Of a DNA stretch of 64,000 nt, positions 2,690 through 50,740 are shown piece after piece; position 1 is the first letter of the stretch; each line of letters starts with the position of its first letter. The stretch is from NCBI RefSeq assembly GCF_003334305.1, contig NZ_QOWS01000021.1; one strand, written 5' to 3'. The DNA comes from Escherichia coli (GTDB lineage Bacteria > Pseudomonadota > Gammaproteobacteria > Enterobacterales > Enterobacteriaceae). The position numbers were made by a program, and so were the translations under genes. The notes beneath the pieces were generated by a model, which made no database searches, was not told the origin of the DNA, and saw nothing but the letters and a program-made list of their open reading frames with translations.

Positions 2690-5648
2690 CCTTAATCGCG
2701 TCATCGGATGGTCTGGTTTACTGCTGACGTCTTTATTGAGTACCAGCGCACTCGCAGACAATATCGGCACCAGCGCAGAAGAGCTGGGGCTGAGCGATTA
2801 TCGCCATTTTGTTATTTATCCCCGTCTCGATAAGGCGCTGAAGGCACAGAAAAATAACGACGAAGCAACCGCCATCCGCGAATTTGAATATATACACCAG
2901 CAGGTGCCGGATAATATTCCGCTGACTTTATACCTTGCGGAAGCCTATCGCCATTTTGGTCATGATGACCGGGCGCGGCTGTTGCTTGAGGATCAACTGA
3001 AACGTCACCCAGGAGATGCCCGACTTGAGCGCAGTCTGGCGGCTATTCCGGTTGAAGTGAAAAGCGTTACGACTGTTGAAGAACTGCTTGCCCAGCAAAA
3101 AGCGTGCGACGCTGCGCCGACCCTGCGTTGTCGCAGTGAAGTCGGGCAGAATGCCCTGCGGCTGGCACAATTACCTGTCGCCAGAGCGCAACTGAACGAT
3201 GCGACGTTTGCTGCATCGCCAGAAGGAAAAACGCTGCGAACCGATCTGCTGCAACGGGCAATCTACCTGAAACAATGGTCCCAGGCAGATACGCTATACA
3301 ATGAAGCACGCCAGCAGAACACATTAAGCGCGGCAGAACGCCGTCAGTGGTTTGACGTGCTTCTTGCCGGGCAGCTGGACGATCGGATCCTGGCACTGCA
3401 ATCACAGGGGATCTTCACCGATCCTCAGTCATATATTACTTACGCGACCGCGCTGGCTTATCGTGGCGAAAAAGCACGCCTCCAGCATTATCTCAATGAA
3501 AATAAGCCGCTGTTTACCACGGACGCACAAGAGAAAAGTTGGCTCTATCTGTTATCTAAATACAGCGCCAACCCCGTTCAGGCATTGGCGAATTATACGG
3601 TGCAGTTTGCCGATAACCGCCAGTATGTTGTTGGCGCGACGCTACCGGTGCTGTTAAAAGAAGGTCAGTACGACGCAGCGCAAAAACTGCTCGCCACCCT
3701 CCCCGCCAATGAAATGCTTGAGGAGCGTTATGCTGTCAGCGTGGCGACCCGTAACAAGGCTGAATCTCTGCGTCTGGCACGATTGCTGTATCAGCAAGAA
3801 CCGGCAAATCTTACCCGCCTGGATCAACTGACCTGGCAACTGATGCAGAACGAGCAGTCACGCGAAGCTGCCGATTTATTGCTGCAACGCTATCCTTTCC
3901 AGGGCGATGCGCGTGTCAGCCAGACTTTAATGGCGCGACTGGCGTCTCTGCTGGAAAGTCATCCTTACCTGGCAACGCCGGCGAAGGTGGCGATTTTATC
4001 GAAACCCTTACCGCTGGCGGAGCAACGTCAGTGGCAAAGTCAGTTGCCGGGTATTGCAGATAATTGCCCGGCAATAGTTCGCTTGCTGGGCGATATGTCG
4101 CCTTCCTACGATGCTGCCGCCTGGAACCGTCTGGCAAAGTGTTATCGGGACACGCTACCCGGTGTGGCGCTGTATGCATGGCTTCAGGCCGAACAACGAC
4201 AACCGAACGCCTGGCAACATCGTGCGGTAGCCTATCAGGCGTATCAGGTTGAGGACTACGCCACCGCACTGGCGGCCTGGCAGAAAATCAGTCTTCACGA
4301 CATGAGCAATGAGGATCTGCTTGCTGCTGCCAATACCGCCCAGGCGGCAGGAAATGGTGCAGCTCGCGATCGCTGGCTACAACAGGCAGAACAACGTGGA
4401 CTGGGAAACAATGCCCTCTACTGGTGGCTGCATGCGCAACGTTACATTCCTGGTCAGCCGGAACTCGCACTGAGCGATCTCACGCGCTCAATCAATATTG
4501 CGCCTTCTGCCAACGCTTACGTTGCGCGGGCGACAATTTATCGCCAACGTCATAATGTCCCGGCGGCGGTGAGTGATTTGCGCGCCGCGCTGGAACTGGA
4601 ACCGAATAATAGCAACATCCAGGCAGCGCTTGGTTACGCCTTGTGGGATAGCGGTGATATCGCACAGTCGCGGGAAATGCTCGAACAGGCGCATAAAGGG
4701 CTTCCGGACGATCCGGCACTGATCCGACAACTGGCCTACGTGAACCAGCGTCTGGATGACATGCCTGCGACGCAGCACTACGCCCGGCTGGTGATTGATG
4801 ACATTGATAATCAGGCGCTGATAACCCCACTGACCCCAGAGCAAAATCAGCAACGCTTCAATTTCCGCCGTTTGCATGAGGAGGTCGGTCGCCGCTGGAC
4901 GTTCAGTTTCGATTCTTCTATCGGCTTGCGTTCCGGGGCAATGAGCACCGCTAACAATAATGTCGGCGGCGCAGCGCCAGGGAAAAGCTATCGTAGCTAC
5001 GGGCAACTGGAAGCCGAGTACCGCATCGGACGCAATATGCTGCTGGAAGGCGACCTGCTCTCAGTTTATAGCCGCGTCTTTGCCGATACCGGAGAAAACG
5101 GGGTGATGATGCCGGTGAAAAATCCGATGTCCGGCACCGGTCTGCGCTGGAAGCCGCTGCGCGATCAGATCTTTTTCCTCGCCGTCGAACAGCAGTTGCC
5201 GCTGAACGGGCAAAATGGCGCATCCGATACCATGCTGCGCGCCAGCGCCTCATTCTTTAATGGCGGCAAATACAGCGACGAATGGCACCCGAACGGTTCA
5301 GGCTGGTTTGCCCAAAACCTGTACCTCGATGCGGCGCAATATATCCGCCAGGATATTCAGGCGTGGACGGCAGATTATCGCGTCAGCTGGCATCAGAAGG
5401 TAGCTAACGGACAGACTATTGAGCCTTACGCTCACGTTCAGGACAACGGCTATCGTGATAAAGGCACTCAGGGCGCGCAGCTTGGCGGAGTCGGGGTCCG
5501 CTGGAATATCTGGACCGGCGAGACGCACTACGACGCCTGGCCGCACAAAGTCAGTCTCGGCGTCGAGTATCAACATACCTTTAAGGCGATTAATCAACGT
5601 AACGGAGAGCGCAACAACGCGTTTCTCACCATTGGAGTGCACTGGTAA
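2676..5648 (+). CDS. nfrA: Outer membrane protein NfrA (phage N4 adsorption protein A), TPR-rich, 990 aa
   Basis: ORF 2655-5648; internal Met at codon 8 gives a signal-peptide-like N-terminus (MKENNLNRVIGWSGLLLTSLL); synteny with nfrB. Confidence 0.85.
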   Translation: MKENNLNRVIGWSGLLLTSLLSTSALADNIGTSAEELGLSDYRHFVIYPRLDKALKAQKNNDEATAIREFEYIHQQVPDNIPLTLYLAEAYRHFGHDDRARLLLEDQLKRHPGDARLERSLAAIPVEVKSVTTVEELLAQQKACDAAPTLRCRSEVGQNALRLAQLPVARAQLNDATFAASPEGKTLRTDLLQRAIYLKQWSQADTLYNEARQQNTLSAAERRQWFDVLLAGQLDDRILALQSQGIFTDPQSYITYATALAYRGEKARLQHYLNENKPLFTTDAQEKSWLYLLSKYSANPVQALANYTVQFADNRQYVVGATLPVLLKEGQYDAAQKLLATLPANEMLEERYAVSVATRNKAESLRLARLLYQQEPANLTRLDQLTWQLMQNEQSREAADLLLQRYPFQGDARVSQTLMARLASLLESHPYLATPAKVAILSKPLPLAEQRQWQSQLPGIADNCPAIVRLLGDMSPSYDAAAWNRLAKCYRDTLPGVALYAWLQAEQRQPNAWQHRAVAYQAYQVEDYATALAAWQKISLHDMSNEDLLAAANTAQAAGNGAARDRWLQQAEQRGLGNNALYWWLHAQRYIPGQPELALSDLTRSINIAPSANAYVARATIYRQRHNVPAAVSDLRAALELEPNNSNIQAALGYALWDSGDIAQSREMLEQAHKGLPDDPALIRQLAYVNQRLDDMPATQHYARLVIDDIDNQALITPLTPEQNQQRFNFRRLHEEVGRRWTFSFDSSIGLRSGAMSTANNNVGGAAPGKSYRSYGQLEAEYRIGRNMLLEGDLLSVYSRVFADTGENGVMMPVKNPMSGTGLRWKPLRDQIFFLAVEQQLPLNGQNGASDTMLRASASFFNGGKYSDEWHPNGSGWFAQNLYLDAAQYIRQDIQAWTADYRVSWHQKVANGQTIEPYAHVQDNGYRDKGTQGAQLGGVGVRWNIWTGETHYDAWPHKVSLGVEYQHTFKAINQRNGERNNAFLTIGVHW

Positions 5649-37721: not shown

Positions 37722-37752
37722 TTGCATGAGTTGCCCATCGATATGGGCAGCT

Positions 37753-38214
37753 CTATCTGCACTGCTCATTAATATACTTCTGGGTTCCTTCCAGTTGTTT
37801 TTGCATAGTGATCAGCCTCTCTCTGAGGGTGAAATAATCCCGTTCAGCGGTGTCTGCCAGTCGGGGGGAGGCTGCATTATCCACGCCGGAGGCGGTGGTG
37901 GCTTCACGCACTGACTGACAGACTGCTTTGATGTGCAACCGACGACGACCAGCGGCAACATCATCACGCAGAGCATCATTTTCAGCTTTCGCATCAGCTA
38001 ACTCCTTCGTGTATTTTGCATCGAGCGCAGCAACATCACGCTGACGCATCTGCATGCCAGTAATTGCCGCGTTCGCCAGCTTCAGTTCTCTGGCATTTTT
38101 GTCGCGCTGGGCTTTGTAGGTAATGGCGTTATCACGGTAATGATTAACAGCCAATGACAGGCAGACGATGATGCAGATAACCAGAGCGGAGATAATCGCG
38201 GTTACTCTGCTCAT
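37753..38214 (-). CDS. Rz: Spanin inner-membrane subunit Rz, 153 aa
   Basis: Matches lambda/DLP12 Rz; follows the endolysin gene. Confidence 0.85.
37812..37994 (-). CDS. Rz1: Spanin outer-membrane lipoprotein Rz1, embedded in Rz in the +1 frame
   Basis: 60-aa ORF with a lipobox (VVGC) and proline-rich sequence, fully nested within Rz. Confidence 0.75.
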
Positions 38215-38708
38215 TGTTTCCCCCACAAACAGACTTCACGCTCAATCTCACGGCGAGTCATCAGTCCTTTCCATTGATTACCGCCAGCGTATGTCCAGCG
38301 CTGTAGCTGATCACATGCGCCTTTAATATCACCCTGGTTTATTTTGCGAAGAAGCGTCGATGTTCTGAAATTGCCAGCACCCACGTTGTAGACGAACGAG
38401 TAAAGAGCGCCGCGCGTTGTTTCCGGTATATCGACTTTGATGTACCGGTTAATTTGTCTGGCGACAGTTGCAAGGTCTTTATTCAGGAGGGCTTTGCACT
38501 CTGCTTCGGTATACGTTTTACCGGGAATGATGTCTTTTCCTGTATGCCCGTAACATACAGTCCATACACCAACTATGTCTTTGTAAGGATTATGTCTCAC
38601 ACCTTCCAGACCATCGTTACCACTTGGGCCAGTGATTAACACAGATGCTATAGCAATAGCCCCGCCACCAATAGCAGCAGCAACAGCTTTTCGTAATGAT
38701 GGAGGCAT
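38211..38708 (-). CDS. rrrD: SAR endolysin (phage-21-type lysozyme, RrrD-like), 165 aa
   Basis: N-terminal signal-anchor-release segment ([16 protein letters not shown]) plus T4-lysozyme-like domain; matches DLP12 RrrD as recalled. Confidence 0.85.
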
Positions 38709-42023: not shown

Positions 42024-42186
42024 GATTCCTCCTTGCTGCCAGTCGCAACCATTTTTTATCAACCAGGCTAGCGGTATATCCGAGCAGTGTTGGTATTTCG
42101 GATGGCTTCAGCTCAGGCTTACGCTTACGACGATTTGATACTCTGTAGATGTGCCCGTTCATGACACGAATAAGCGGTGTAGCCAT
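42016..42186 (-). CDS. ninE: NinE-like protein, 56 aa
   Basis: Manually translated ([56 protein letters not shown]); start overlaps the ybcN stop; coordinates approximate. Confidence 0.55.
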   Translation of the reverse strand: MATPLIRVMNGHIYRVSNRRKRKPELKPSEIPTLLGYTASLVDKKWLRLAARRNHG

Positions 42187-42641
42187 TACGCCTCCTGCTT
42201 ATCGCGCAGCTGCTGGTATTCACAGCTCTGCGGAATTGTCAGGTGGCAGCCGATATTCATCGCCCAGGCTTCGACTTTGCACAGGAAGATGTACATCTCG
42301 CCGGTTTCCAGCTCTGACGTATGGCGGAGGGATTGGACGGTGGTGACCTCGCCGGACACGACATCTACACGGTCTTTGCTTTCGTAGCCGAGATAGGTGT
42401 GCTTCATCGCGTCTTTGACCCACTCAGGCGTAGCGAAGGTCTTGCCGCGGGCGATGAGATATTCGCTGATCTCCGTGTACCACATGTGGCTGAGCGCGTT
42501 CTGCGACAGGCTGCGCTTCTCGCGCCACGGCTTAACCTGCAGGCGTAAGCATTGCCCGGCATCCAGCAATGGCTGAATCTGCTGGCCGATGGCCGCGAAG
42601 TTACCGCGATGGAGTTTGATGCCGTCTACTGGCAGAGTCAT
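42186..42641 (-). CDS. ybcN: YbcN-like nin-region protein, 151 aa
   Basis: Same size and position as DLP12 ybcN; function not assigned from sequence. Confidence 0.6.
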   Translation of the reverse strand: MTLPVDGIKLHRGNFAAIGQQIQPLLDAGQCLRLQVKPWREKRSLSQNALSHMWYTEISEYLIARGKTFATPEWVKDAMKHTYLGYESKDRVDVVSGEVTTVQSLRHTSELETGEMYIFLCKVEAWAMNIGCHLTIPQSCEYQQLRDKQEA

Positions 42642-42905
42642 ACGGCCTCCCTAACGGAAACCGCAGAATGCAGAAAATCGCAGGTGCATTTCTGCATCTG
42701 TGACAAGGTGATGAGTTCAGATTGTGGTCGCATTTAAGTCCCCTTAAATGCGCAGAAGTCACCGGAGTTGTTCAGGCTCCGATGAGAGGATTATGGCGGA
42801 TTGATTACGATAAATCAAAACTATCTTGAAGCCAAAACAGTGATCTTCGCTTTAAAAACCTTGTATACTTTCACCTAATCACAGCCAGAACTATGGATCT
42901 AACCA

Positions 42906-43283
42906 ATGACCAACAAAGAAAACAAAGATAAATATATTAACAAGTTCAAGAAAGAGCTTTCAAAATATATACAACCAACTGCTGGAGTGGACATTCAATT
43001 ATTTAACTCTAAGGATGGTGGTGGTGTAATTAAAGCCACTTTGAATAGAAGTGGAAAAAGAAAATCATCTATTGCAGGTAATTTTACTAAATTAGGTGAG
43101 GCAATTACCTCGAGTGGGCAGAGGGTTTTTGGTGGTGATCTATCAAATGTAAATTTTTACGGAACAAATACGATTTTTGATGGAGATACAATATTTTTAA
43201 TTAAATCACCTGATTCAGAGGAGTGGTCATCACAAAAAGCTTCCAAAGACGTAGAGGGCATCGTATTTGGAGGGAAAAAATGA
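42906..43283 (+). CDS. Hypothetical small soluble protein, 125 aa (first gene of an AT-rich reverse-oriented cargo pair)
   Basis: ORF on the strand opposite to the flanking early genes; Lys/Gly-rich; no recognisable motif. Confidence 0.5.
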   Translation: MTNKENKDKYINKFKKELSKYIQPTAGVDIQLFNSKDGGGVIKATLNRSGKRKSSIAGNFTKLGEAITSSGQRVFGGDLSNVNFYGTNTIFDGDTIFLIKSPDSEEWSSQKASKDVEGIVFGGKK

Positions 43284-43708
43284 TTAACATTACTACTAAG
43301 GATGGCACTCAAGTCAGTGGTGAAGTAAGAGATCTAGTAATTCTTCTTGAAACTGATGGAAAAACGGTGTCTGATTATTTGCAGCCAATCCCTCCCAAAA
43401 AAGATACACACTGGAGCATGATTTTCATTCCGGTAGCAATTTATATACTACTTAATCTTGTATACATTATTGCTCACCCATTATTTCCTGAAAAATATCT
43501 AAAAACATCAACATCTATATTTCTATTCATTTCCTTCATATTAAGTGCAATAGTAGCATATTTTGTTTTCCATAAGCATAAATCTGCCACTCTATCCATA
43601 TGCAGCTTAGTGTTCTTAGTGTTAATTGTAGGTGCTAACGTAGGGTTTATCAGTTACAGCGACCTAACACAAAAAGCGACGCAAAAATTAGATAGTTTGT
43701 CTAAATAA
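43280..43708 (+). CDS. Hypothetical membrane protein with about 3 TM helices, 142 aa
   Basis: ATG preceded by GGAGGG; ATGA overlap with the upstream gene; three hydrophobic stretches of about 20 aa. Confidence 0.5.
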   Translation: MINITTKDGTQVSGEVRDLVILLETDGKTVSDYLQPIPPKKDTHWSMIFIPVAIYILLNLVYIIAHPLFPEKYLKTSTSIFLFISFILSAIVAYFVFHKHKSATLSICSLVFLVLIVGANVGFISYSDLTQKATQKLDSLSK

Positions 43709-43786
43709 TTATGTTGCCATGCGAAGTATGCATGGCTGCATGTCTGCCTTCCATTTAAAATGGGCTAAGACCTATAACCCTAAATA

Positions 43787-44500
43787 TTATTCTTTATTAT
43801 CTTCTTTACCACTTCGCACCATCCCGTTCGACTTGTTGCGGTTGTACTTCGCCTGAAGCAGCTGGATTGGCGTCGGGCCATGCTCGGCAGCCGGTGCTGC
43901 AATCGCCCGGCGCACAGGCGGTACTGGTTTGCCCTCGGTGACGCGCCTCTCCCACATGTCCAGCAGATCGCCGGCTTCACGCGCCAGCTCACCATGCGTT
44001 AACTGGCGCTCTGTGCTGCGGTGGCGCAGTTCGACGCAGATGTGGTACATGACAGGCTGTGACCACGGGAAATGCTCGCTGGAAGTGAATTCGAAGGAAC
44101 GATTACGCCAATCCCAGTATTCGGTTATGACTTGGTCAACAGTGATACCTAACGCCCCGCCACTCTGCTTACACCACGCTACGAACTGGCCGGGCGACGG
44201 CAGGAATGGTCGCTCCTGTCGGCGGGCCACGCGCATTCCGGCGTTAACCTGTTCCATTGTGGTGATCCCGTTTTCCCGGAAAGCCAGAACCCACTGGCGG
44301 CGAATTTCGTTCAGTTCGTTCTGGTCACGGTTAGCCAGGCTCGCAGGGAAAGTTGCCAGCAACTGGCTGAATACACCGTTGATGATCTGCGCTACCTGCT
44401 GTACCTGCGGCTTTTCGTCGTACTGTTCCGGCATGTTGTTGGCGATCCGGCGCATCTGCTCACGGTCAAAGTTAACCATCTGTGCGGCGATGTTTTTCAT
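43787..44500 (-). CDS. P: Replication protein P (helicase loader), 237 aa
   Basis: N-terminal two-thirds match lambda P as recalled; the C-terminus diverges. Confidence 0.85.
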   Translation of the reverse strand: MKNIAAQMVNFDREQMRRIANNMPEQYDEKPQVQQVAQIINGVFSQLLATFPASLANRDQNELNEIRRQWVLAFRENGITTMEQVNAGMRVARRQERPFLPSPGQFVAWCKQSGGALGITVDQVITEYWDWRNRSFEFTSSEHFPWSQPVMYHICVELRHRSTERQLTHGELAREAGDLLDMWERRVTEGKPVPPVRRAIAAPAAEHGPTPIQLLQAKYNRNKSNGMVRSGKEDNKE

Positions 44501-45426
44501 AAATCCACCCCGTAAATCCAGTCAGTGTTCGTCAGGTCGAGTTTTGGTTTGCCGGCTGTCACGCCAGCCTGTTGCTTGTTTCGGTTGATTTCGAGCTGGG
44601 TCCACTTGTCGCGGAGTTTGGCCGGACTCAGCACGTTACCGGACCAGAAGTTGTCCTGGCAGGCCCAGCGAAACAGTACACACATGTCGCGGTGGTTACG
44701 TCCATCACGTTCACGCATCAGACGGATATCGTTAGCCCACCCTGCAAAATTCGGTTTTCTGGCTGATGGTGCGATAGTCTTCACCATGTCAAACATCCAC
44801 TCTGCGGCGGTCAGGTCTTCTGCTGTCCCCCACTTGCTGCCGTTCTGAATCGCAGCATCCGCTTTCACCACAGGAAGGTCGTTTTCTGGCAGGTCAGAGG
44901 ATTCGCCAGAATTCTCTGACGAATAAGGTTTTATATTGTCTTTTGTTAGTTTGTCTTTTGTGTTTACCGGATTCGGGTAAGTGCCTTTACCTGATTTGGG
45001 TAAACTTTTCTTACCTGATTCAGGTAAATTTACCTCTTTCAGGTAAACTTTATTTTTCTTACCTGATTCGGGTAATGTTGACCATTCACTGACCACATTA
45101 TTAATGCCTATATTCCGCCCGCTCTGAATAAAAATCCCACGCTTTACCAGAACACTTTTTGCAGCAGAACACTTGTGCGGCAATATCCCGGTCAACTCGG
45201 AAAGTTGCTCGTTGCTCACCCAATCCAGTTTTTTATTAAAGCCATATGTTTTGCGCATGACAGCCAGGAAGACCAGAAGCTGGTGCTGTGTTAATCCGGC
45301 CAGCATTACAGCTTCCAGCAACTCATTTGCAATGCGCGTATAACCATCATCGAGATCTGCCACGCGCGGCTCCTTTTGTGCCGCATCCGGCACAGGAAAA
45401 TTGAATATCTCAGCAGTGTTTGCCAT
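44497..45426 (-). CDS. O: Replication initiator O (contains ori iterons)
   Basis: ORF 44497-45516; ATG at 45426 has a GGGAGG SD and an N-terminus (MANTAEIFNF) like lambda O (MTNTAKILNF). Confidence 0.8.
   Translation of the reverse strand: MANTAEIFNFPVPDAAQKEPRVADLDDGYTRIANELLEAVMLAGLTQHQLLVFLAVMRKTYGFNKKLDWVSNEQLSELTGILPHKCSAAKSVLVKRGIFIQSGRNIGINNVVSEWSTLPESGKKNKVYLKEVNLPESGKKSLPKSGKGTYPNPVNTKDKLTKDNIKPYSSENSGESSDLPENDLPVVKADAAIQNGSKWGTAEDLTAAEWMFDMVKTIAPSARKPNFAGWANDIRLMRERDGRNHRDMCVLFRWACQDNFWSGNVLSPAKLRDKWTQLEINRNKQQAGVTAGKPKLDLTNTDWIYGVDL
44963..45075. repeat. ori: five ~17-bp iterons (ttacctgattcgggtaa-like) with a flanking AT-rich stretch, inside the O gene
   Basis: Direct repeats ttaccggattcgggtaa, ttacctgatttgggtaa, ttacctgattcaggtaa, ttacctctttcaggtaa, ttacctgattcgggtaa; coordinates approximate. 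Confidence 0.75.
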
Positions 45427-45512
45427 AATTCCTCCCGCAATGAGTGTGTTACGATTTGCACCTGAAAGTCGGTTCTGTTCCCGCAGACCGACTTTCGCCA
45501 TTTTTAAACCTG

Positions 45513-46058
45513 TCATATTGCCCCCAACATGGTGGTAACCATCGCCATCAATGGACCAGCCAGATCCGGGTCCACACGAAACATCGACACAATACCTTCA
45601 CTCATCTCCTTCAGTTTCTGGTGGCGTGGTGCGTTGAGAATGACAGCCTGTTTTGCCTCACTGAGTTCCTTTTCCATTTCAGCCAACCGAGTCATGAAGC
45701 TATCCTGCTCAACCAGGTAACCGCGATATTCCAGCGGTAGTACCGCCAGAATTGCCGGGGTCAGTTCACGCACGTTATTTCGGTATTTTTCAGAATCGAA
45801 TTTGTTATCGAGGAAGCGGAACAGCTTCTGGCGTGCACGGCTGACATCATCAGGGAAATCGATGGTGCCGCCGCCCTGTGCTCGATACTCATTCACAATG
45901 AGTGCGGCAACAACATCCTGATTATCTGCAGCCGACCAGGCGCGGACGGCATCACGGATTTTTTCGTGGCCTGGCACCTGTTTTGTTTGAGAACGATTTA
46001 TCACCGCAGTCGGGCTAAATCCGCTAGTCTGTTGGTATGTAAGTGGTTGCATAGTCAT
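45513..46058 (-). CDS. YdaT-family protein in the cII position, 181 aa
   Basis: Similarity to Rac YdaT as recalled (EYRAQGGG…LTPAILAVLP vs EYLRQGGG…LIPAILAILP). Confidence 0.6.
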   Translation of the reverse strand: MTMQPLTYQQTSGFSPTAVINRSQTKQVPGHEKIRDAVRAWSAADNQDVVAALIVNEYRAQGGGTIDFPDDVSRARQKLFRFLDNKFDSEKYRNNVRELTPAILAVLPLEYRGYLVEQDSFMTRLAEMEKELSEAKQAVILNAPRHQKLKEMSEGIVSMFRVDPDLAGPLMAMVTTMLGAI

Positions 46059-46082
46059 TGCCTTATCAGTTAACGCCGCAGT

Positions 46083-46316
46083 TTAGGCGGCAGAATTACT
46101 CGCGTTAAACAATGGTGCGAGGTCGGGACGAATATCTGCTGGTTTAATCTTTCCACCAGTGGCTGAGACAATTTTCATTACATAGCGGGCATCAATTCCG
46201 CCACCGTGTAGCCAACGCCAAACTGTGGGTTGGGCTACACCGCATAGATCTGCCAGTCGTTTTTGACTACCTGTAATACTGATTGCGAGTTGAATGGTTT
46301 GATTTGTCATTATCAA
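46083..46316 (-). CDS. Cro/YdaS-like HTH regulator, 77 aa
   Basis: HTH (LADLCGVAQPTVWRW); divergent from the cI-like gene across an operator region. Confidence 0.7.
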   Translation of the reverse strand: MIMTNQTIQLAISITGSQKRLADLCGVAQPTVWRWLHGGGIDARYVMKIVSATGGKIKPADIRPDLAPLFNASNSAA

Positions 46317-46324
46317 TTCCTATT

Positions 46325-46380
46325 GGTATTGCAATGAATGAATAATAGCAATGAGTATTAACCCAAGCAATAGCAAAACG
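46325..46380. promoter_or_regulatory. OR-like operator/promoter region between the cro-like and cI-like genes
   Basis: Repeated atagcaat(g/a)agtatt-type motifs shared with the OL region; TATAAA about 9 nt upstream of the cI ATG suggests a leaderless PRM transcript; coordinates approximate. Confidence 0.5.
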
Positions 46381-46420
46381 TGTTTTGACCATCAATACGC
46401 AAGCGTATAAATTAAAACTT

Positions 46421-47113
46421 ATGAAAAAAGAAACTCTTGCTGATCGCTTAAATCTAGCGATGGAACAATCTGGAATGTCTCAAGGCGCTCTTGCAAAGGC
46501 GTCTGGCGTAGCTCAACCCACAATCTGGAGACTGACAAGCGGCAACGCGCGCGGCTCAACAAAAATTGTTGAAATAGCTAATGCATTGGGTGTTCGAACA
46601 GAATGGCTCTCTTCAGGCATAGGCCCGATGAGAAATGACGGTCAACAATCAGGGAAGCCTGCTGTCAGCCATTCCAAATACTTCAAAATTGACGTTCTTG
46701 ATATAGAAGTCAGTGCCGGGCCGGGTGTAATCAACCGTGAGTTTGTAGAAGTTCTACGCTCGGTTGAATACTCGTTTGACGATGCTCGTCACATGTTCGA
46801 TGGCAGGAAGGCGGAAAATATCCGCATCATTAACGTGCGTGGTGACAGCATGTCAGGAACGATCGAACCAGGTGATCTGCTGTTCGTTGATATCACGGTT
46901 AAATCTTTCGACGGTGATGGTATCTATGCGTTTCTGTATGACGACACCGCCCATGTAAAACGCCTGCAAATGATGAAGGATAAGCTGCTGGTTATCTCTG
47001 ATAACAAGAGCTACTCACCGTGGGACCCGATCGAGAAAGACGAGATGAACCGCGTGTTCATCTTCGGGAAAGTCATCGGGAGCATGCCGCAGACATATAG
47101 AAAGCATGGGTAG
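46421..47113 (+). CDS. cI: CI-type repressor (HTH + S24 LexA-like peptidase domain), 230 aa
   Basis: N-terminal HTH (MSQGALAKASGVAQPTIWRL) and C-terminal S24 region (VRGDSMSGTIEPGDLLFVD…KRL). Confidence 0.85.
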   Translation: MKKETLADRLNLAMEQSGMSQGALAKASGVAQPTIWRLTSGNARGSTKIVEIANALGVRTEWLSSGIGPMRNDGQQSGKPAVSHSKYFKIDVLDIEVSAGPGVINREFVEVLRSVEYSFDDARHMFDGRKAENIRIINVRGDSMSGTIEPGDLLFVDITVKSFDGDGIYAFLYDDTAHVKRLQMMKDKLLVISDNKSYSPWDPIEKDEMNRVFIFGKVIGSMPQTYRKHG

Positions 47114-47175
47114 AAATCAGAACAAAATTATGCACTTCGCTTTTCAGCTTACTGTAGTAAGGCAATAAATTAGGC

Positions 47176-47212
47176 TTGACGTTAGCTATCAGGTGCACAA
47201 CAATAATTGTTG
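47176..47212 (+). promoter_or_regulatory. Candidate promoter with a 15-bp perfect palindrome (caacaataattgttg) upstream of the HTH-peptidase gene
   Basis: TTGACG -35-like hexamer followed by the palindrome, 30-65 nt upstream of the 47243 start; coordinates approximate. Confidence 0.4.
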
Positions 47213-47242
47213 AATAATAGGTTTTTTTAACTAGGTGATAAC

Positions 47243-48382
47243 ATGGCAGCGGTTGAATTTCAATTGTCTAGGAAGATGATTGATTGGATAGCAAATTCTC
47301 AAGGAGTTTCTATCGAAACTCTTGCTGACCAAGTCATGCCCAAAAAGATTAATAAATTTCTTAACGGAGTGGTAAGTAAATCCGCAGCAGAAAAACTGGC
47401 AAAAATTGGAGGAATCCCTTTCGGTTTTTTATTTCTTGAAACGCCACCAACTCCAGCCAAACCCAAGATCCCTGACTTAAGGCAAGCTATAAATAGCCGT
47501 GAGTTAGGAAAAGATTTTTTTGATGTTTACTATGATATAGAATATAAACTTGAGTGGTACAAAGACTATTTAAGAGAAAATGGTAATGATGATCCACTCG
47601 ATTTTATTGGTAAATTTAAATTTAATAGAAAATTAAATTATAAGGTTGTTGCTACAGACATAGCAAACACAATACATTTTGATATACAAAAAGAGATAAA
47701 AAATGTCACTTTTGAGAGCTATTTTTCTAAAGTGGCAAAACTAATAGAAGACACTGGCGTATTAGTTTTCAAGAATGGTGTTGTGGGTAATAATAATAAA
47801 AGAAAACTTGACACGCGAGAGTTTCGTGGTTTCTGTATATCTGATAGCGTTGCTCCGATCATTTTTGTAAATAGCTCGGACGCGTTATCTGCGCAGGTAT
47901 TTACATTATTTCATGAGGTGGCTCATCTTTGGCTTGGAGTCGATGGAGTCTCTGGGTGGGACACAGAAAAAAACATAGAATCTTTTTGTAATAAAGTTGC
48001 TGCTGAAATCTTAATGCCTGATAATCTCTTCAAATCTTTCTGGCTTAATGCATCCAGCGATAATAATTATTATCGAGTAAAAGAGGTTTCTAAGTTATTT
48101 AAGGTTAGTGATTTCGCTTGTGCAATCAAAGCGTTACAATTAGATTTGATAGAAAGAAACACTTTGGAGATAATTAAAGATCAAGCTTACAATAAGCCCA
48201 AAAAAGAATCCAATGGTGGTTCTTTCTTTAACACATTACCTGTTCGTAACAGTCCAAAACTTACGAATATAATAATTTCCAAAGCAATGTCTCAACAATT
48301 ACCATTAAGGGAAGCAGGCGTACTGCTAAATGTAAAAGCAGATACAGTTGTTGAATTTTATAAAAAACGAGAATCTCTATGA
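47243..48382 (+). CDS. HTH-fused ImmA/IrrE-family (M78/DUF955-like) zinc metallopeptidase, 379 aa
   Basis: N-terminal XRE-like HTH; HEXXH motif (FHEVAHLW); AGGTGA SD; AT-rich; directly downstream of cI. Confidence 0.7.
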   Translation: MAAVEFQLSRKMIDWIANSQGVSIETLADQVMPKKINKFLNGVVSKSAAEKLAKIGGIPFGFLFLETPPTPAKPKIPDLRQAINSRELGKDFFDVYYDIEYKLEWYKDYLRENGNDDPLDFIGKFKFNRKLNYKVVATDIANTIHFDIQKEIKNVTFESYFSKVAKLIEDTGVLVFKNGVVGNNNKRKLDTREFRGFCISDSVAPIIFVNSSDALSAQVFTLFHEVAHLWLGVDGVSGWDTEKNIESFCNKVAAEILMPDNLFKSFWLNASSDNNYYRVKEVSKLFKVSDFACAIKALQLDLIERNTLEIIKDQAYNKPKKESNGGSFFNTLPVRNSPKLTNIIISKAMSQQLPLREAGVLLNVKADTVVEFYKKRESL

Positions 48383-48891
48383 TTCATAATGGAAAATTCT
48401 TAATTGATAGTAATGTCTTCATAGAGGCAAAAAACTTTGCATATAACTTCAATTATTGCAAAATATTTTGGGATTTTCTTCTCGCTTTACACATTAATGG
48501 TCTGATTTATAGCATTAATGCTGTAAAAAAAGAACTATGTGCAAAAGATGATCCATTGTGTAAATGGATTAAAGAAGAGTTACCATCATCATTCTTCGAA
48601 GATGAGCATAGTTCAATAGAAAATTATGCAAAGTTAATAAATTGGTCAACTAAATTAGATGTTACCGAAAAGGCAAAGTTTGATTTTGCAAGCCATGAAA
48701 AAGCAGATGCTTTTTTAATAGCCCATGCGATGACACATGGATATACTATTATTACCCATGAGAAACCATCCGGTGGCAAACCTAAAAAAAGAATAATGAT
48801 CCCGGATGCTGCTGCTTCTCACGGCGTTAAGACATTAACACTATATGAATTTCTTCCAAGATACGCTAGTCATAATTTTTCTTTGAAATAA
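48379..48891 (+). CDS. PIN-like (possibly DUF4411-family) putative nuclease/effector, 170 aa
   Basis: ATGA overlap with the upstream gene; N-terminal strand-Asp motif (FLIDSNVFIEA) typical of PIN folds; fold assignment is tentative. Confidence 0.5.
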   Translation: MIHNGKFLIDSNVFIEAKNFAYNFNYCKIFWDFLLALHINGLIYSINAVKKELCAKDDPLCKWIKEELPSSFFEDEHSSIENYAKLINWSTKLDVTEKAKFDFASHEKADAFLIAHAMTHGYTIITHEKPSGGKPKKRIMIPDAAASHGVKTLTLYEFLPRYASHNFSLK

Positions 48892-48896
48892 AACGT

Positions 48897-48923
48897 CCCG
48901 GCCACCGTGCCGGGTTTTCTTTT
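48897..48923 (+). terminator. Rho-independent terminator after the two-gene cassette
   Basis: cccggccaccgtgccggg followed by TTTTCTTTT. Confidence 0.75.
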
Positions 48924-49044
48924 GCCTCCCCTCATCACACACACCGTTCAAAAAACCACCACAACCCCGCTTCAGTTATCGCTATGCGATGCAAGTCACA
49001 AAATTAATTCTTTTTGCTATCAAATATTTAATATCAAAACACAT

Positions 49045-49092
49045 CTAGCAATAGCAATAAGTATTGATATCATCAATAGCAATAGCTATTAT
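49045..49092. promoter_or_regulatory. OL-like operator region (pL)
   Basis: tagcaatagcaataagtattg and atcaatagcaatagctattatc repeat the motif seen in the OR region; coordinates approximate. Confidence 0.45.
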
Positions 49093-49198
49093 CACCATGT
49101 CGCAACAACACAACGATACGGCAATCACCTGATTCACCGTTGCGATGACCGCTTAGATCCGCAGCTTGAATTTCAGCAGGCTCCGGGGAGTGCGAGGG

Positions 49199-49576
49199 GT
49201 GAAGCGGACGCGTGAACGTCGGTGTGACCAGCTGAAATCAACTCAACACTTCATACCTCAGTCGCTTCAACGAGGCGGCTTAGTTATGACAACCGGCGGC
49301 CATCCACCGCCTGAATACGCGCAGAAGTCTTTATATGTTCAGCAGCCCAGCTTACGGGCAGGAGTTTTTATGGTTCATCAACATTACGGAACGCAGACCG
49401 TTAATCGCGGTGCGGTCATGCCAGGAATGCTGGTCAAACACAAAGATGGTACCTGGACTGCATCAGCTAATTTACGCGGACGGCTTTATCTGCATCGCGG
49501 CATCGAGCGCACTTATACCCGTGATTTGCTCGTAGAAGTTTTTCTCGACGGACGCGGTAACGGCCTGAATCACTAA
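49199..49576 (+). CDS. Possible N-like antitermination protein with an arginine-rich motif (GTG start)
   Basis: First gene after the OL region; KRTRERR at the N-terminus resembles N-protein ARMs; no other similarity recognised. Confidence 0.3.
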   Translation: MKRTRERRCDQLKSTQHFIPQSLQRGGLVMTTGGHPPPEYAQKSLYVQQPSLRAGVFMVHQHYGTQTVNRGAVMPGMLVKHKDGTWTASANLRGRLYLHRGIERTYTRDLLVEVFLDGRGNGLNH

Positions 49577-49652
49577 CCCCCCTTTCCTGTTTTCCTAATC
49601 AGCCTGGCATTTCGCAGGCGATATTTTCACAGCCATTTTCAGGAGTTCAGCC

Positions 49653-49949
49653 ATGAACGCTTATTACATTCAGGATCGTCTTGAGGCTCAGAGCTGGGCA
49701 CGTCACTACCAGCAGATCGCCCGTGAAGAGAAAGAGGCAGAACTGGCAGACGACATGGAAAAAGGTCTTCCACAGCACCTGTTTGAATCACTCTGTATCG
49801 ATCATTTGCAACGCTGCGGGGCCAGCAAAAAAGCCATTACCCGTGCGTTTGATGACGATGTTGAGTTTCAGGAGCGCATGGCAGAACACATCCGGTACAT
49901 GGTTGAAACCATTGCTCACCACCAGTTTGATATTGATTCAGAGGTATAA
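49653..49949 (+). CDS. gam: Gam (RecBCD inhibitor, short form), 98 aa
   Basis: Matches lambda GamS as recalled ([21 protein letters not shown]…). Confidence 0.9.
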
Positions 49950-49954
49950 AACGG

Positions 49955-50740
49955 ATGAGTACAGCACTCGCAACGCTGGCAGGAAAGCTGGCTGAACGTG
50001 TCGGCATGGATTCTGTCGACCCACAGGAACTGATCACCACTCTTCGCCAGACGGCATTTAAAGGTGATGCCAGCGATGCGCAGTTCATCGCATTGTTGAT
50101 CGTCGCCAACCAGTACGGCCTTAATCCGTGGACGAAAGAAATTTACGCCTTCCCTGATAAGCAGAACGGCATCGTTCCGGTGGTGGGCGTTGATGGCTGG
50201 TCCCGCATCATCAATGAAAACCAGCAGTTTGATGGCATGGACTTTGAGCAGGACAATGAATCCTGTACATGCCGGATTTACCGCAAGGACCGTAATCATC
50301 CGATCTGCGTTACCGAATGGATGGATGAATGCCGCCGCGAACCATTCAAAACTCGCGAAGGCAGAGAAATCACGGGGCCGTGGCAGTCGCATCCCAAACG
50401 GATGTTACGGCATAAAGCCATGATTCAGTGTGCCCGTCTGGCCTTCGGATTTGCTGGTATCTATGACAATGATGAAGCCGAGCGCATTGTCGAAAATACT
50501 GCATACACTGCAGAACGTCAGCCAGAACGCGACATCACTCCGGTTAACGATGAAACCATGCAGGAGATTAACACTCTGCTGATCGCCCTGGATAAAACAT
50601 GGGATGACGACTTATTGCCGCTCTGTTCCCAGATATTTCGCCGCGACATTCGCGCATCGTCAGAACTGACACAGGCCGAAGCAGTGAAAGCTCTTGGATT
50701 CCTGAAACAGAAAGCCACTGAGCAGAAGGTGGCAGCATGA
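49955..50740 (+). CDS. bet: Bet single-strand annealing recombinase, 261 aa
   Basis: Matches lambda Beta. Confidence 0.95.

Follow-up and report, generated by a model that had tools for sequence, protein, structure and literature searches.

A YdaS/YdaT-family gene pair in the early operon of a lambdoid prophage

The DNA analysed here, a 64,000-nucleotide stretch of an Escherichia coli contig (hereafter the window), carries a full lambdoid prophage next to a tRNA-Arg gene and fimZ. We examined two genes of its early rightward operon, at 45513-46316, which are related to ydaS and ydaT of the Rac prophage. An earlier note, made from the sequence alone, had read them as a Cro-like helix-turn-helix (HTH) gene followed by a 181-aa YdaT-family gene ahead of the replication genes O and P; this gene order is exact and both open reading frames (ORFs) lie where the note had placed them. 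The two genes are as follows.

46310..46083, minus strand: cro-like gene (YdaS family), 75 aa plus stop, beginning MTNQ..., first in the pR-type operon (Pfam, PHROGs)
46052..45513, minus strand: cII-like gene (YdaT family, phi80-CII subtype), 179 aa plus stop, beginning MQPLTYQ... (Pfam, PHROGs, structure model)

The ORFs called mechanically are slightly longer, 46083..46316 (77 aa, TTG start) and 45513..46058 (181 aa), both on the minus strand. Judging from the sequence, the true starts are likely the ATG at 46310 for the cro-like gene (75 aa) and the ATG at 46052 for the cII-like gene (179 aa), since both are used in the RefSeq record of the 100%-identical E. coli strain A7 and since the equivalent methionine opens all homologues. 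The start at 46052 is further favoured by an AAGG 8 nt upstream.

Profile searches, which the earlier note had suggested as a check, assigned both proteins to the families it named. Against Pfam-A the 77-aa protein matched YdaS_toxin (PF15943, 1.3e-14), with weak matches to P22_Cro and HTH_3, and the 181-aa protein matched YdaT_toxin (PF06254, i-Evalue 7.5e-30, residues 69-156). Against PHROGs they matched phrog_35 'transcriptional repressor' (1.2e-24) and phrog_163 'CII-like transcriptional activator' (5.9e-67, residues 19-181), respectively. No NCBIfam family was assigned to the 181-aa protein in the NCBIfam scan. Nor was it matched by Phage_CII in the Pfam scan, which places it outside the lambda CII family; a tblastn search with lambda CII found lambda-type cII genes in control phages, and these belong to a family separate from it. 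In BLASTP the cII-like protein was 35% identical to Rac YdaT (4e-12), and the cro-like protein 32% identical to Rac YdaS (6e-10). The latter also gave weak sequence matches to the Xfaso-1 Cro structure 3BD1 and to 5W8Y.

The cro-like protein thus has the features of the YdaS family, namely a PF15943 match, a small single HTH domain and the first place in a pR-type operon. The cII-like gene has those of ydaT, lying second in the operon after a Cro-like gene and diverging from the prophage repressor. Its similarity to YdaT, on which the earlier note had staked the assignment, was borne out on formal alignment by the Pfam profile and by Rac YdaT, and again by the structural matches described below.

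Predicted fold and DNA-contact residues of the cII-like protein

The cII-like protein was modelled by AlphaFold2 with 21 homologues as input (mean predicted local distance difference test score 77). The model has helices at residues 30-43, 45-58, 70-82, 88-104, 107-113 and 119-138, with residues 1-26 disordered. These six helices follow the published YdaT topology and are followed by two additional C-terminal helices. Confident Foldseek matches in the PDB were limited to the two YdaT structures 3C4R and 8BT1 (probability 1.0, target-normalised template modelling score 0.67-0.72, root-mean-square deviation 2.9-3.7 A over 117-123 columns), the same two entries that were returned by a PDB search with the sequence. 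By AlphaFold2 and Foldseek the fold is that of the YdaT family, an all-alpha POU-like HTH domain (alpha1-alpha5) with a long oligomerisation helix, alpha6. The model therefore predicts an N-terminal POU-like HTH domain at about residues 30-113, a long helix at 119-138 and two C-terminal helices specific to the subtype. The equivalent of the 119-138 helix forms the tetramer in homologues, the CP-933P YdaT structure being tetrameric (PMC9986795).

In Rac YdaT, residues H56 and R57 are required (PMC11879457). We compared the recognition helix in six representatives (the window, phages phi80, HK639 and BHUENT6, and prophages Rac and CP-933P), and found two residues, Gln75 and Arg79, in all of them. 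Arg79 is the counterpart of Rac R57. Of the two neighbouring Rac positions, H56 has no histidine equivalent in the window protein, as is also the case in CP-933P YdaT (F-R-W), and W58 is replaced by phenylalanine. The recognition helix of the phi80 subtype, RQKLFRFLDN, hardly varies.

The pair occupies the cro and cII positions of a lambda-type immunity region

The surroundings of the pair have the layout of a lambda-type immunity region, with the following features.

46421..47113, plus strand: CI-type repressor gene, HTH plus S24 peptidase (phrog_4, 9e-70; phrog_6201 'CI-like repressor', 2.4e-46; A7 RefSeq)
46315..46413, cI-cro gap: right operator (OR) region with operator-like repeats, a putative pR and a pRM-like promoter
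46370..46365 (TTGCTT), 17-nt spacer, 46347..46342 (TATTAT), minus strand: putative pR, read by eye and below the scan threshold
46385-46413, plus strand: pRM-like promoter TTGACC-17-TAAATT (consensus scan)
49006..49090: left operator (OL) region, four operator-motif matches at three sites, upstream of kil-gam-bet-exo (pattern search)
45401..45507, plus strand: candidate oop/M3-like antisense RNA, with promoter TTGAAT-17-CATAAT at 45401-45429, stem-loop at 45464-45496 and a U run
45516 or 45426 (start) to 44497-44499 (stop codon, just within the P start), minus strand: O-like gene (TIGR01610, 2.5e-23; phrog_277, 3e-161)
44959-45075, inside O: five ori iterons, consensus TTACCTGATTCGGGTAA, 19-29 bp spacing
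44500..43787, minus strand: P-like helicase loader gene (phrog_109, 4e-89)

The C-terminus of the CI-type repressor gave LexA/UmuD-type matches. A pattern search for the 16-bp motif AATAGCAATNAGTATT found 10 matches in the window against 1.8 expected, clustered at OR and OL. Three of the OR copies fall within the 110-bp cI-cro gap (46315-46330, 46344-46359, 46369-46384), and cro itself contains another (46275-46290). The presence of the motif both in this gap and upstream of kil-gam-bet-exo indicates the OR/OL arrangement of a lambda-type switch. The five iterons inside O are the expected replication origin.

Between the cII stop codon and O, the antisense candidate adjoins the stop codon, at the position of the phi80 M3 RNA, an annotated oop homologue. 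Its promoter scored 9/12 with a TG in the consensus scan, and its 77-nt transcript folds at -24.6 kcal/mol (z = -4.5) with a centroid terminator hairpin of -20.1 kcal/mol. No similarity to the phi80 and HK639 M3 RNAs was found in the window by blastn, so that the candidate rests on position and structure, and as an oop/M3-type antisense RNA it fits CII-style control. Its place before the RefSeq O start also bears on the choice between the two possible O starts, since one at 45516 would overlap the candidate and one at 45426 would not.

Some lambda elements were not seen. The cro-cII gap of 30 bp (about 24 bp from the 181-aa start) leaves no room for nutR or tR1, and, unlike in lambda, neither an N nor a cIII gene was apparent: nothing N-like separates the OL/pL region (49006-49110) from kil (49370-49576), and no cIII is annotated on the pL side (47114-49576). 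The putL-like antiterminator RNA, though annotated in HK639, had no similarity in the window (blastn), and Rfam scans of 43000-50000 and 42100-43000 gave nothing meaningful. A promoter and terminator consensus scan of 45300-46500 returned only the pRM-like and oop-like promoters, with no PRE-like site and no terminators.

Distribution and comparison with characterised systems

The cI-cro-cII-O-P block is 96-97% identical in the coliphages 4A7, Lambda_4C10, Perceval, 1W, 3W and the PhiR series (Bievrevirus-like). These are isolated, plaque-forming phages, and their depositors annotated the block as cI, Cro and cII. The cII family of the window is found in 39 phage records; at least 80% of a 1-kb segment is present at at least 95% identity in 717 of 5,426 complete E. 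coli genomes, and a protein search returned 891 homologous clusters across Enterobacteriaceae. The same gene order occurs in phi80, HK639, HK225, CobraSix, Rac and CP-933P.

The cII protein of phi80 is 66% identical over its full length (179 versus 180 aa, E 3e-92) and is encoded in a region of the same order, cI, cro-like gene, cII, small antisense RNA, O-like and P-like genes. The phi80 Cro analogue, gene 30, is only marginally similar to the window protein (34% over 44 aa, E 0.001), which implies a different immunity specificity. In addition, phi80 has an N gene and nut sites, none of which were seen in the window, and its replication proteins are of different subtypes. The cII proteins of HK639 and HK225 are 53% identical to that of the window. 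In 4A7 and relatives, the genes behind cI and the cargo between P and ybcN differ from those of the window.

The Rac pair belongs to the same two Pfam families, faces the repressor from the same position and conserves the DNA-contact arginine. Rac YdaT (140 aa) lacks both the 26-residue N-terminal extension of the window protein and its conserved 40-residue helical C-terminus. The Rac repressor, RacR, is not an S24 protein, and the 6 kb of Rac that we examined showed no ybcN module. The CP-933P protein (8BT1; related 3C4R) shares the fold over about 120 residues and the motif Q-K-(I/L)-F-R-(W/F)-L-D while being only 26-30% identical; its repressor operon carries a ParE2 toxin-antitoxin (TA) system. 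Lambda Cro and CII hold the same places in the immunity region (pR operon, divergent cI, OR/OL, oop-type RNA beside cII, O and P), so that the same logic is expected. Lambda CII is shorter (97 versus 179 aa), with no detectable sequence similarity reported for the family (PMC9986795), and binds a direct repeat, TTGC-N6-TTGC, whereas an inverted repeat is the expected site of the window protein.

In the Enterobacter phage BHUENT6 we observed a very divergent YdaT/phi80-CII-like protein (positions 3278-3874 of our locus L091; 27% identity to the window protein); the phage is unannotated. It shares an MHSLAYQQ N-terminus, and its locus has a degenerate box upstream of ybcN. It had escaped tblastn with the window, Rac and lambda proteins.

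YdaS and YdaT were recognised as Cro and CII counterparts by Casjens (2003) and Jobling (2018, PMC5917428), who traced the name 'toxin' to software for automatic TA prediction. The work of Jurenas et al. on CP-933P showed that its two proteins serve as regulators rather than as a TA system and that YdaT activates a PRE-like promoter, PRE933P (PMC8630535). Prolic-Kalinsek et al. determined the YdaT tetramer structure and a TTGATT-N6-AATCAA footprint (PMC9986795). In the study of Wons et al. (PMC11879457), Rac YdaT bound ATGATT-N6-AATCAA at the ydaT start codon and activated a reverse promoter for racR 29-fold; it also bound around the ydaS start and from there repressed the racR promoters. The same protein bound the CP-933P box in vitro, and the promoter dependent on the Rac box was activated in vivo by both homologues, only 30% identical to each other (PMC11879457).

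Taken together, family, fold, lambda-type context, phage annotations and the experiments on homologues make it very probable that the pair is equivalent to cro and cII in a lambdoid prophage of the phi80/HK639/4A7 type. The regulatory or lysis-lysogeny role suggested by the earlier note is supported by the 66% identity to phi80 cII and by the work on CP-933P and Rac. Its description of the pair as standing in place of cro and cII was right about position; the module is a well-populated and already annotated one rather than an unusual replacement. Databases wrongly label this phi80-type Cro/CII module as a toxin.

YdaT box-like sites at the start of the operon

Since the recognition helix is conserved, we searched the window with the published YdaT box, TTGATT-N6-AATCAA. 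By chance, 0.005 exact matches and 0.22 with at most one mismatch are expected per 64 kb. The search returned one exact box (42801-42818, S3) and one single-mismatch copy (46299-46316, S1). Together with a weaker element inside cII, S2, the sites near the operon start are as follows.

46299..46316: S1, YdaT-box-like palindrome TTGATTtgtcatTATCAA, 11 of 12 positions, with the cro-like ATG (46310..46308) in the spacer
45987..46004: S2, box-like element, in gene sense GTGATAaatcgtTCTCAA, at cII codons 17-22

S1 covers the ribosome-binding site and ATG of cro and in its placement resembles the Rac footprint around the ydaS start. In 4A7 the palindrome is degenerate (TTAATA for TTGATA), and about half of the viral loci nearly identical to the window likewise have it only in degenerate form. 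As it is conserved in only part of these loci we downgraded it, and from sequence it is a weak candidate for a regulatory site.

The case for S2 is its conservation at this position. Its codons read xTGAT(A/T)-N6-xxTCAA in most phi80-type cII genes examined. Among 33 phi80-type genes that were aligned, Ile is encoded by ATA and Gln by CAA without exception, with synonymous variation in the two spacer codons. HK639 and HK225 keep the left half (ATGATT) with a partial right half (AATCGC) and a different peptide, and BHUENT6 has at this place a perfect palindrome, TTGATTtcgattTATCAA, with yet another peptide. More generally, synonymous changes are almost absent from cII codons 1-22, whereas codon entropy averages 0.83 bits over the whole gene.

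The box of CP-933P and that of Rac overlap the ATG of ydaT and precede the first codons of the DNA-binding domain by about 10 nt. For S2 the distance to the equivalent codons is about 27 nt, and the window ORF begins 16 codons further upstream; the disordered N-terminal extension of the phi80 subtype would therefore be encoded over a probable operator, S2. Like the window, Rac has box-like sites near the cro-type start and just before the DNA-binding-domain codons. S1 and S2 are 312 bp apart and the two Rac sites about 320-330 bp (overall, ~310-330 bp).

An exact YdaT box upstream of ybcN

The single exact box of the window, which has the TTGATT-N6-AATCAA form of the CP-933P box, lies downstream of P.

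42801-42818, minus strand: S3, exact YdaT box TTGATTacgataAATCAA (match to the published box), within a promoter-like site at 42790..42818
42642..42789, minus strand: structured ybcN leader (RNAalifold, 14 phage sequences: 24 pairs, 11 with compensatory changes)

On the minus strand the box supplies the -35 hexamer (42818..42813) of the promoter-like site together with most of its 17-nt spacer; the -10 is CATAAT (42795..42790). Read along pR transcription, the sequence is TTGATT-N6-AATCAA-5 nt-CATAAT. The ybcN coding sequence (42186-42641) starts 177 bp from the box, and a conserved hairpin begins about 7 nt beyond the promoter-like site. The GenBank record of phage 82 marks a putative -35/-10 here and the hairpin as a 'possible regulator-binding site', leaving the palindrome unmarked.

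Across loci with a YdaT-type cII and ybcN, the half-sites and the -10 of S3 are conserved and the 6-nt spacer is free to vary, which is the pattern of a protein-binding operator. Similarity stops abruptly at the distal side of the box (29 distinct versions). The box is shared by 4A7 and relatives, and phi80 has a palindrome TTGATA-N6-TATCAA upstream of its ybcN.

To count such sites we scored palindromes with at most one mismatch to TTGAT-N8-ATCAA, 160-200 bp upstream of ybcN. In a first set of loci the box accompanied YdaT-type cII in 38/38 cases and lambda-type or Chronis-gp44-type cII in 0/3; in a second set, seeded with a Klebsiella-phage YbcN, the respective counts were 3/4 and 5/58. Overall, the box was present in 41 of the 42 loci with YdaT-type cII versus 5 of the 61 with other cII types (Fisher 6e-22, uncorrected for relatedness), and only one of those five carries it in exact form. 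The box does not merely travel with ybcN, since 56/61 ybcN loci with other cII types are box-less; these have a TTGCTT-17-GATAAT promoter-like sequence at the same distance from the hairpin. Neither is it a general property of YdaT prophages, as CP-933P-type loci, which are without ybcN, have only the box at the ydaT ATG.

The region between the box and ybcN is itself structured. The leader of about 150 nt forms three or four hairpins with covarying stems and conserved loops (CCUGAACA, GGGA), had no Rfam match and is present in ybcN phages regardless of cII type. It may serve to stabilise the 5' end or act as an RNA of the antitermination type.

The box also occurs in E. coli K-12 MG1655. In the prophage DLP12, an exact box, TTGATTttgggaAATCAA, followed by CATAAT lies upstream of ylcH-ybcN-ninE-ybcO-rusA-quuD (NC_000913.3, about 572285-572302; L095 6285-6302), and Rac YdaT is encoded in the same chromosome, so that the two could form a cross-prophage regulatory link. 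The site goes unmentioned in the Rac YdaT paper (PMC11879457), and the main text of PMC6765115 gives no transcriptome support for YdaT effects on DLP12 genes. In the open literature the half-site sequences were found only in two YdaT papers, and ydaT and ybcN are named together only in one unrelated genome announcement.

Between P and ybcN, two small AT-rich genes on the plus strand (42906-43708) face against the pR operon; one encodes a soluble protein of 125 aa, the other a protein of 142 aa that has hydrophobic segments, and PADLOC gave no match for either. This insertion abuts the distal edge of the S3 box.

A probable CII-type regulator with a possible second target

Gene identity, family, fold, context and the presence and conservation of the sites are established by these observations; DNA binding, the sign of regulation and the effect on lysogeny are inferred. 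The most likely scheme is the following. When the CI-type repressor is absent, upon infection or induction, the pR-type promoter would transcribe the cro-like gene, the cII-like gene, O and P leftward. The 75-aa HTH protein would act like Cro, presumably competing with CI for the AATAGCAAT-type operators that both would bind and lowering cI transcription. The 179-aa protein is expected to bind inverted repeats of the type TTGAT(T/A)-N6-(A/T)ATCAA; we infer this binding, and its part in lysogeny, from the homology to Rac and CP-933P YdaT and from the cII annotation in phi80. By activating a reverse PRE-like promoter it would increase the synthesis of repressor and thereby favour lysogeny. Such a promoter may be located in cro or close to it, following the Rac and CP-933P pattern; alternatively, the protein may boost the pRM-like promoter (46385-46413), some 110 bp away from S1. 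S2 would be the most likely activation site, possibly together with S1.

The CII-like protein would also occupy S3, where it would most likely repress the ybcN...Q promoter and delay late-gene activation; repression is predicted because the box lies over the -35 hexamer and spacer. That S3 is a genuine CII-type operator is a tentative prediction, to which we give slightly less than even weight. With similar caution, we consider it possible, if short of probable, that the phi80/YdaT-type CII has a second target that had not been described before, a sigma-70 promoter upstream of ybcN-ninE-rusA-Q with a YdaT box as -35 and spacer, at which its binding directly throttles transcription toward Q. 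By analogy, repression of this kind would do directly what lambda CII does via the paQ antisense promoter.

Several points weigh against this scheme. The literature searched contained no experiment on the phi80-CII subtype; identity to the biochemically studied YdaTs is only 30-35%, and the DNA specificity is assumed. No convincing plus-strand PRE-like sigma-70 promoter was found at 46004-46320 by scan and inspection. S1 is missing in many loci with the same cII and is absent from divergent loci. S2 fits the published consensus at only 8/12 positions, and it may be conserved for other reasons, such as translation signals or a module junction homogenised by recombination. As to S3, the loci behind the association are phylogenetically related, and there are two exceptions, L133 with a phi80-type cII and no box and L164 with a lambda-type cII and an exact box, as is expected in mosaic phages. 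Finally, CP-933P-type prophages are without a second box downstream: in CP-933P itself the single exact box overlaps the ydaT ATG and none follows within 10 kb.

Some of these points would suit a scheme in which both proteins are transcription factors but the 179-aa protein is mainly a repressor or brake, acting on ybcN-Q at S3 and on cro translation or pR elongation at S1, with no PRE-like activation. The sole exact box of the window does overlap a -35 hexamer and spacer, as is typical of repression, S1 covers the cro translation start, the scan gave no PRE-like promoter, and Rac YdaT represses the racR promoters when bound in the intergenic region (PMC11879457). Both studied homologues nevertheless activate a reverse promoter for the repressor operon, and S2 is a box-like element in the corresponding position, shortly before the codons of the DNA-binding domain. 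Moreover, activator-dependent promoters usually escape consensus scans, and S1 is poorly conserved. We regard a pure brake as unlikely, though it is the strongest competitor of the Cro/CII assignment with activation of repressor synthesis.

It is far less probable that the genes are inert remnants of a decaying prophage with no present function. Rz and Rz1 (rzoD) are annotated as broken pseudogenes in the identical prophage of strain A7, and many E. coli prophages beside this tRNA-Arg gene are defective, including DLP12 of K-12. Both ORFs are intact and 96-98% identical to the versions in isolated phages, the family is kept at 53-73% identity across Enterobacteriaceae with invariant DNA-contact residues, and the neighbouring cI, O, P and operator sites are intact.

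Least credible of all is a type II TA module with YdaT as toxin and YdaS as antitoxin, a reading that draws on the Pfam names, on the RefSeq product name 'toxin YdaT domain-containing protein' and on the toxicity of overexpressed Rac ydaS/ydaT (cited in PMC5917428, PMC11879457), but the call came from an automatic predictor and experiments did not bear it out (PMC5917428, PMC8630535), and the supposed toxin has an HTH DNA-binding fold instead of an enzymatic or poisoning one (our model; PMC9986795). The genes form no self-contained bicistron but head a long operon with O and P, and the repressor they face is of CI type and shares its operators at OR and OL. In phi80 the homologue bears the annotation cII, and lambda CII is likewise toxic on overproduction, yet no toxin (PMC5917428).

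Neighbouring genes

Behind cI, at the lambda rexAB position (47243-48891, plus strand), the window encodes two proteins, a metallopeptidase of the ImmA/IrrE family (379 aa) and a 170-aa DUF4411 protein. PADLOC matches of the ImmA/IrrE protein were weak only and capP/RmrA-like; the two are possibly a defence or exclusion pair expressed by the lysogen. In the late region, the Rz/Rz1 (rzoD) spanin genes are frameshifted or partial pseudogenes in the A7 RefSeq record (L001 4353-4815; window about 37750-38215), and the prophage may be defective for lysis despite its intact regulatory region. The late region also holds an ompC/nmpC-type porin gene and iss/bor.

Implications for annotation and for the lysis-lysogeny switch

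Immunity regions of this type are common, and their regulators have been known as Cro/CII analogues since 2003 and characterised structurally and biochemically in 2021-2025. For annotation, the consequence is a correction: RefSeq products named 'toxin YdaT domain-containing protein', as that of the cII-like gene is, are better read as CII-type lysogeny regulators. What is new here is the conserved YdaT box as a candidate operator of the ybcN promoter. If S3 is a real operator, YdaT-type CII proteins would have a second target, tying the lysis-lysogeny switch directly to Q in N-less phi80/HK639-like phages, and cross-talk between the cryptic prophages Rac and DLP12 would be predicted in E. coli K-12.

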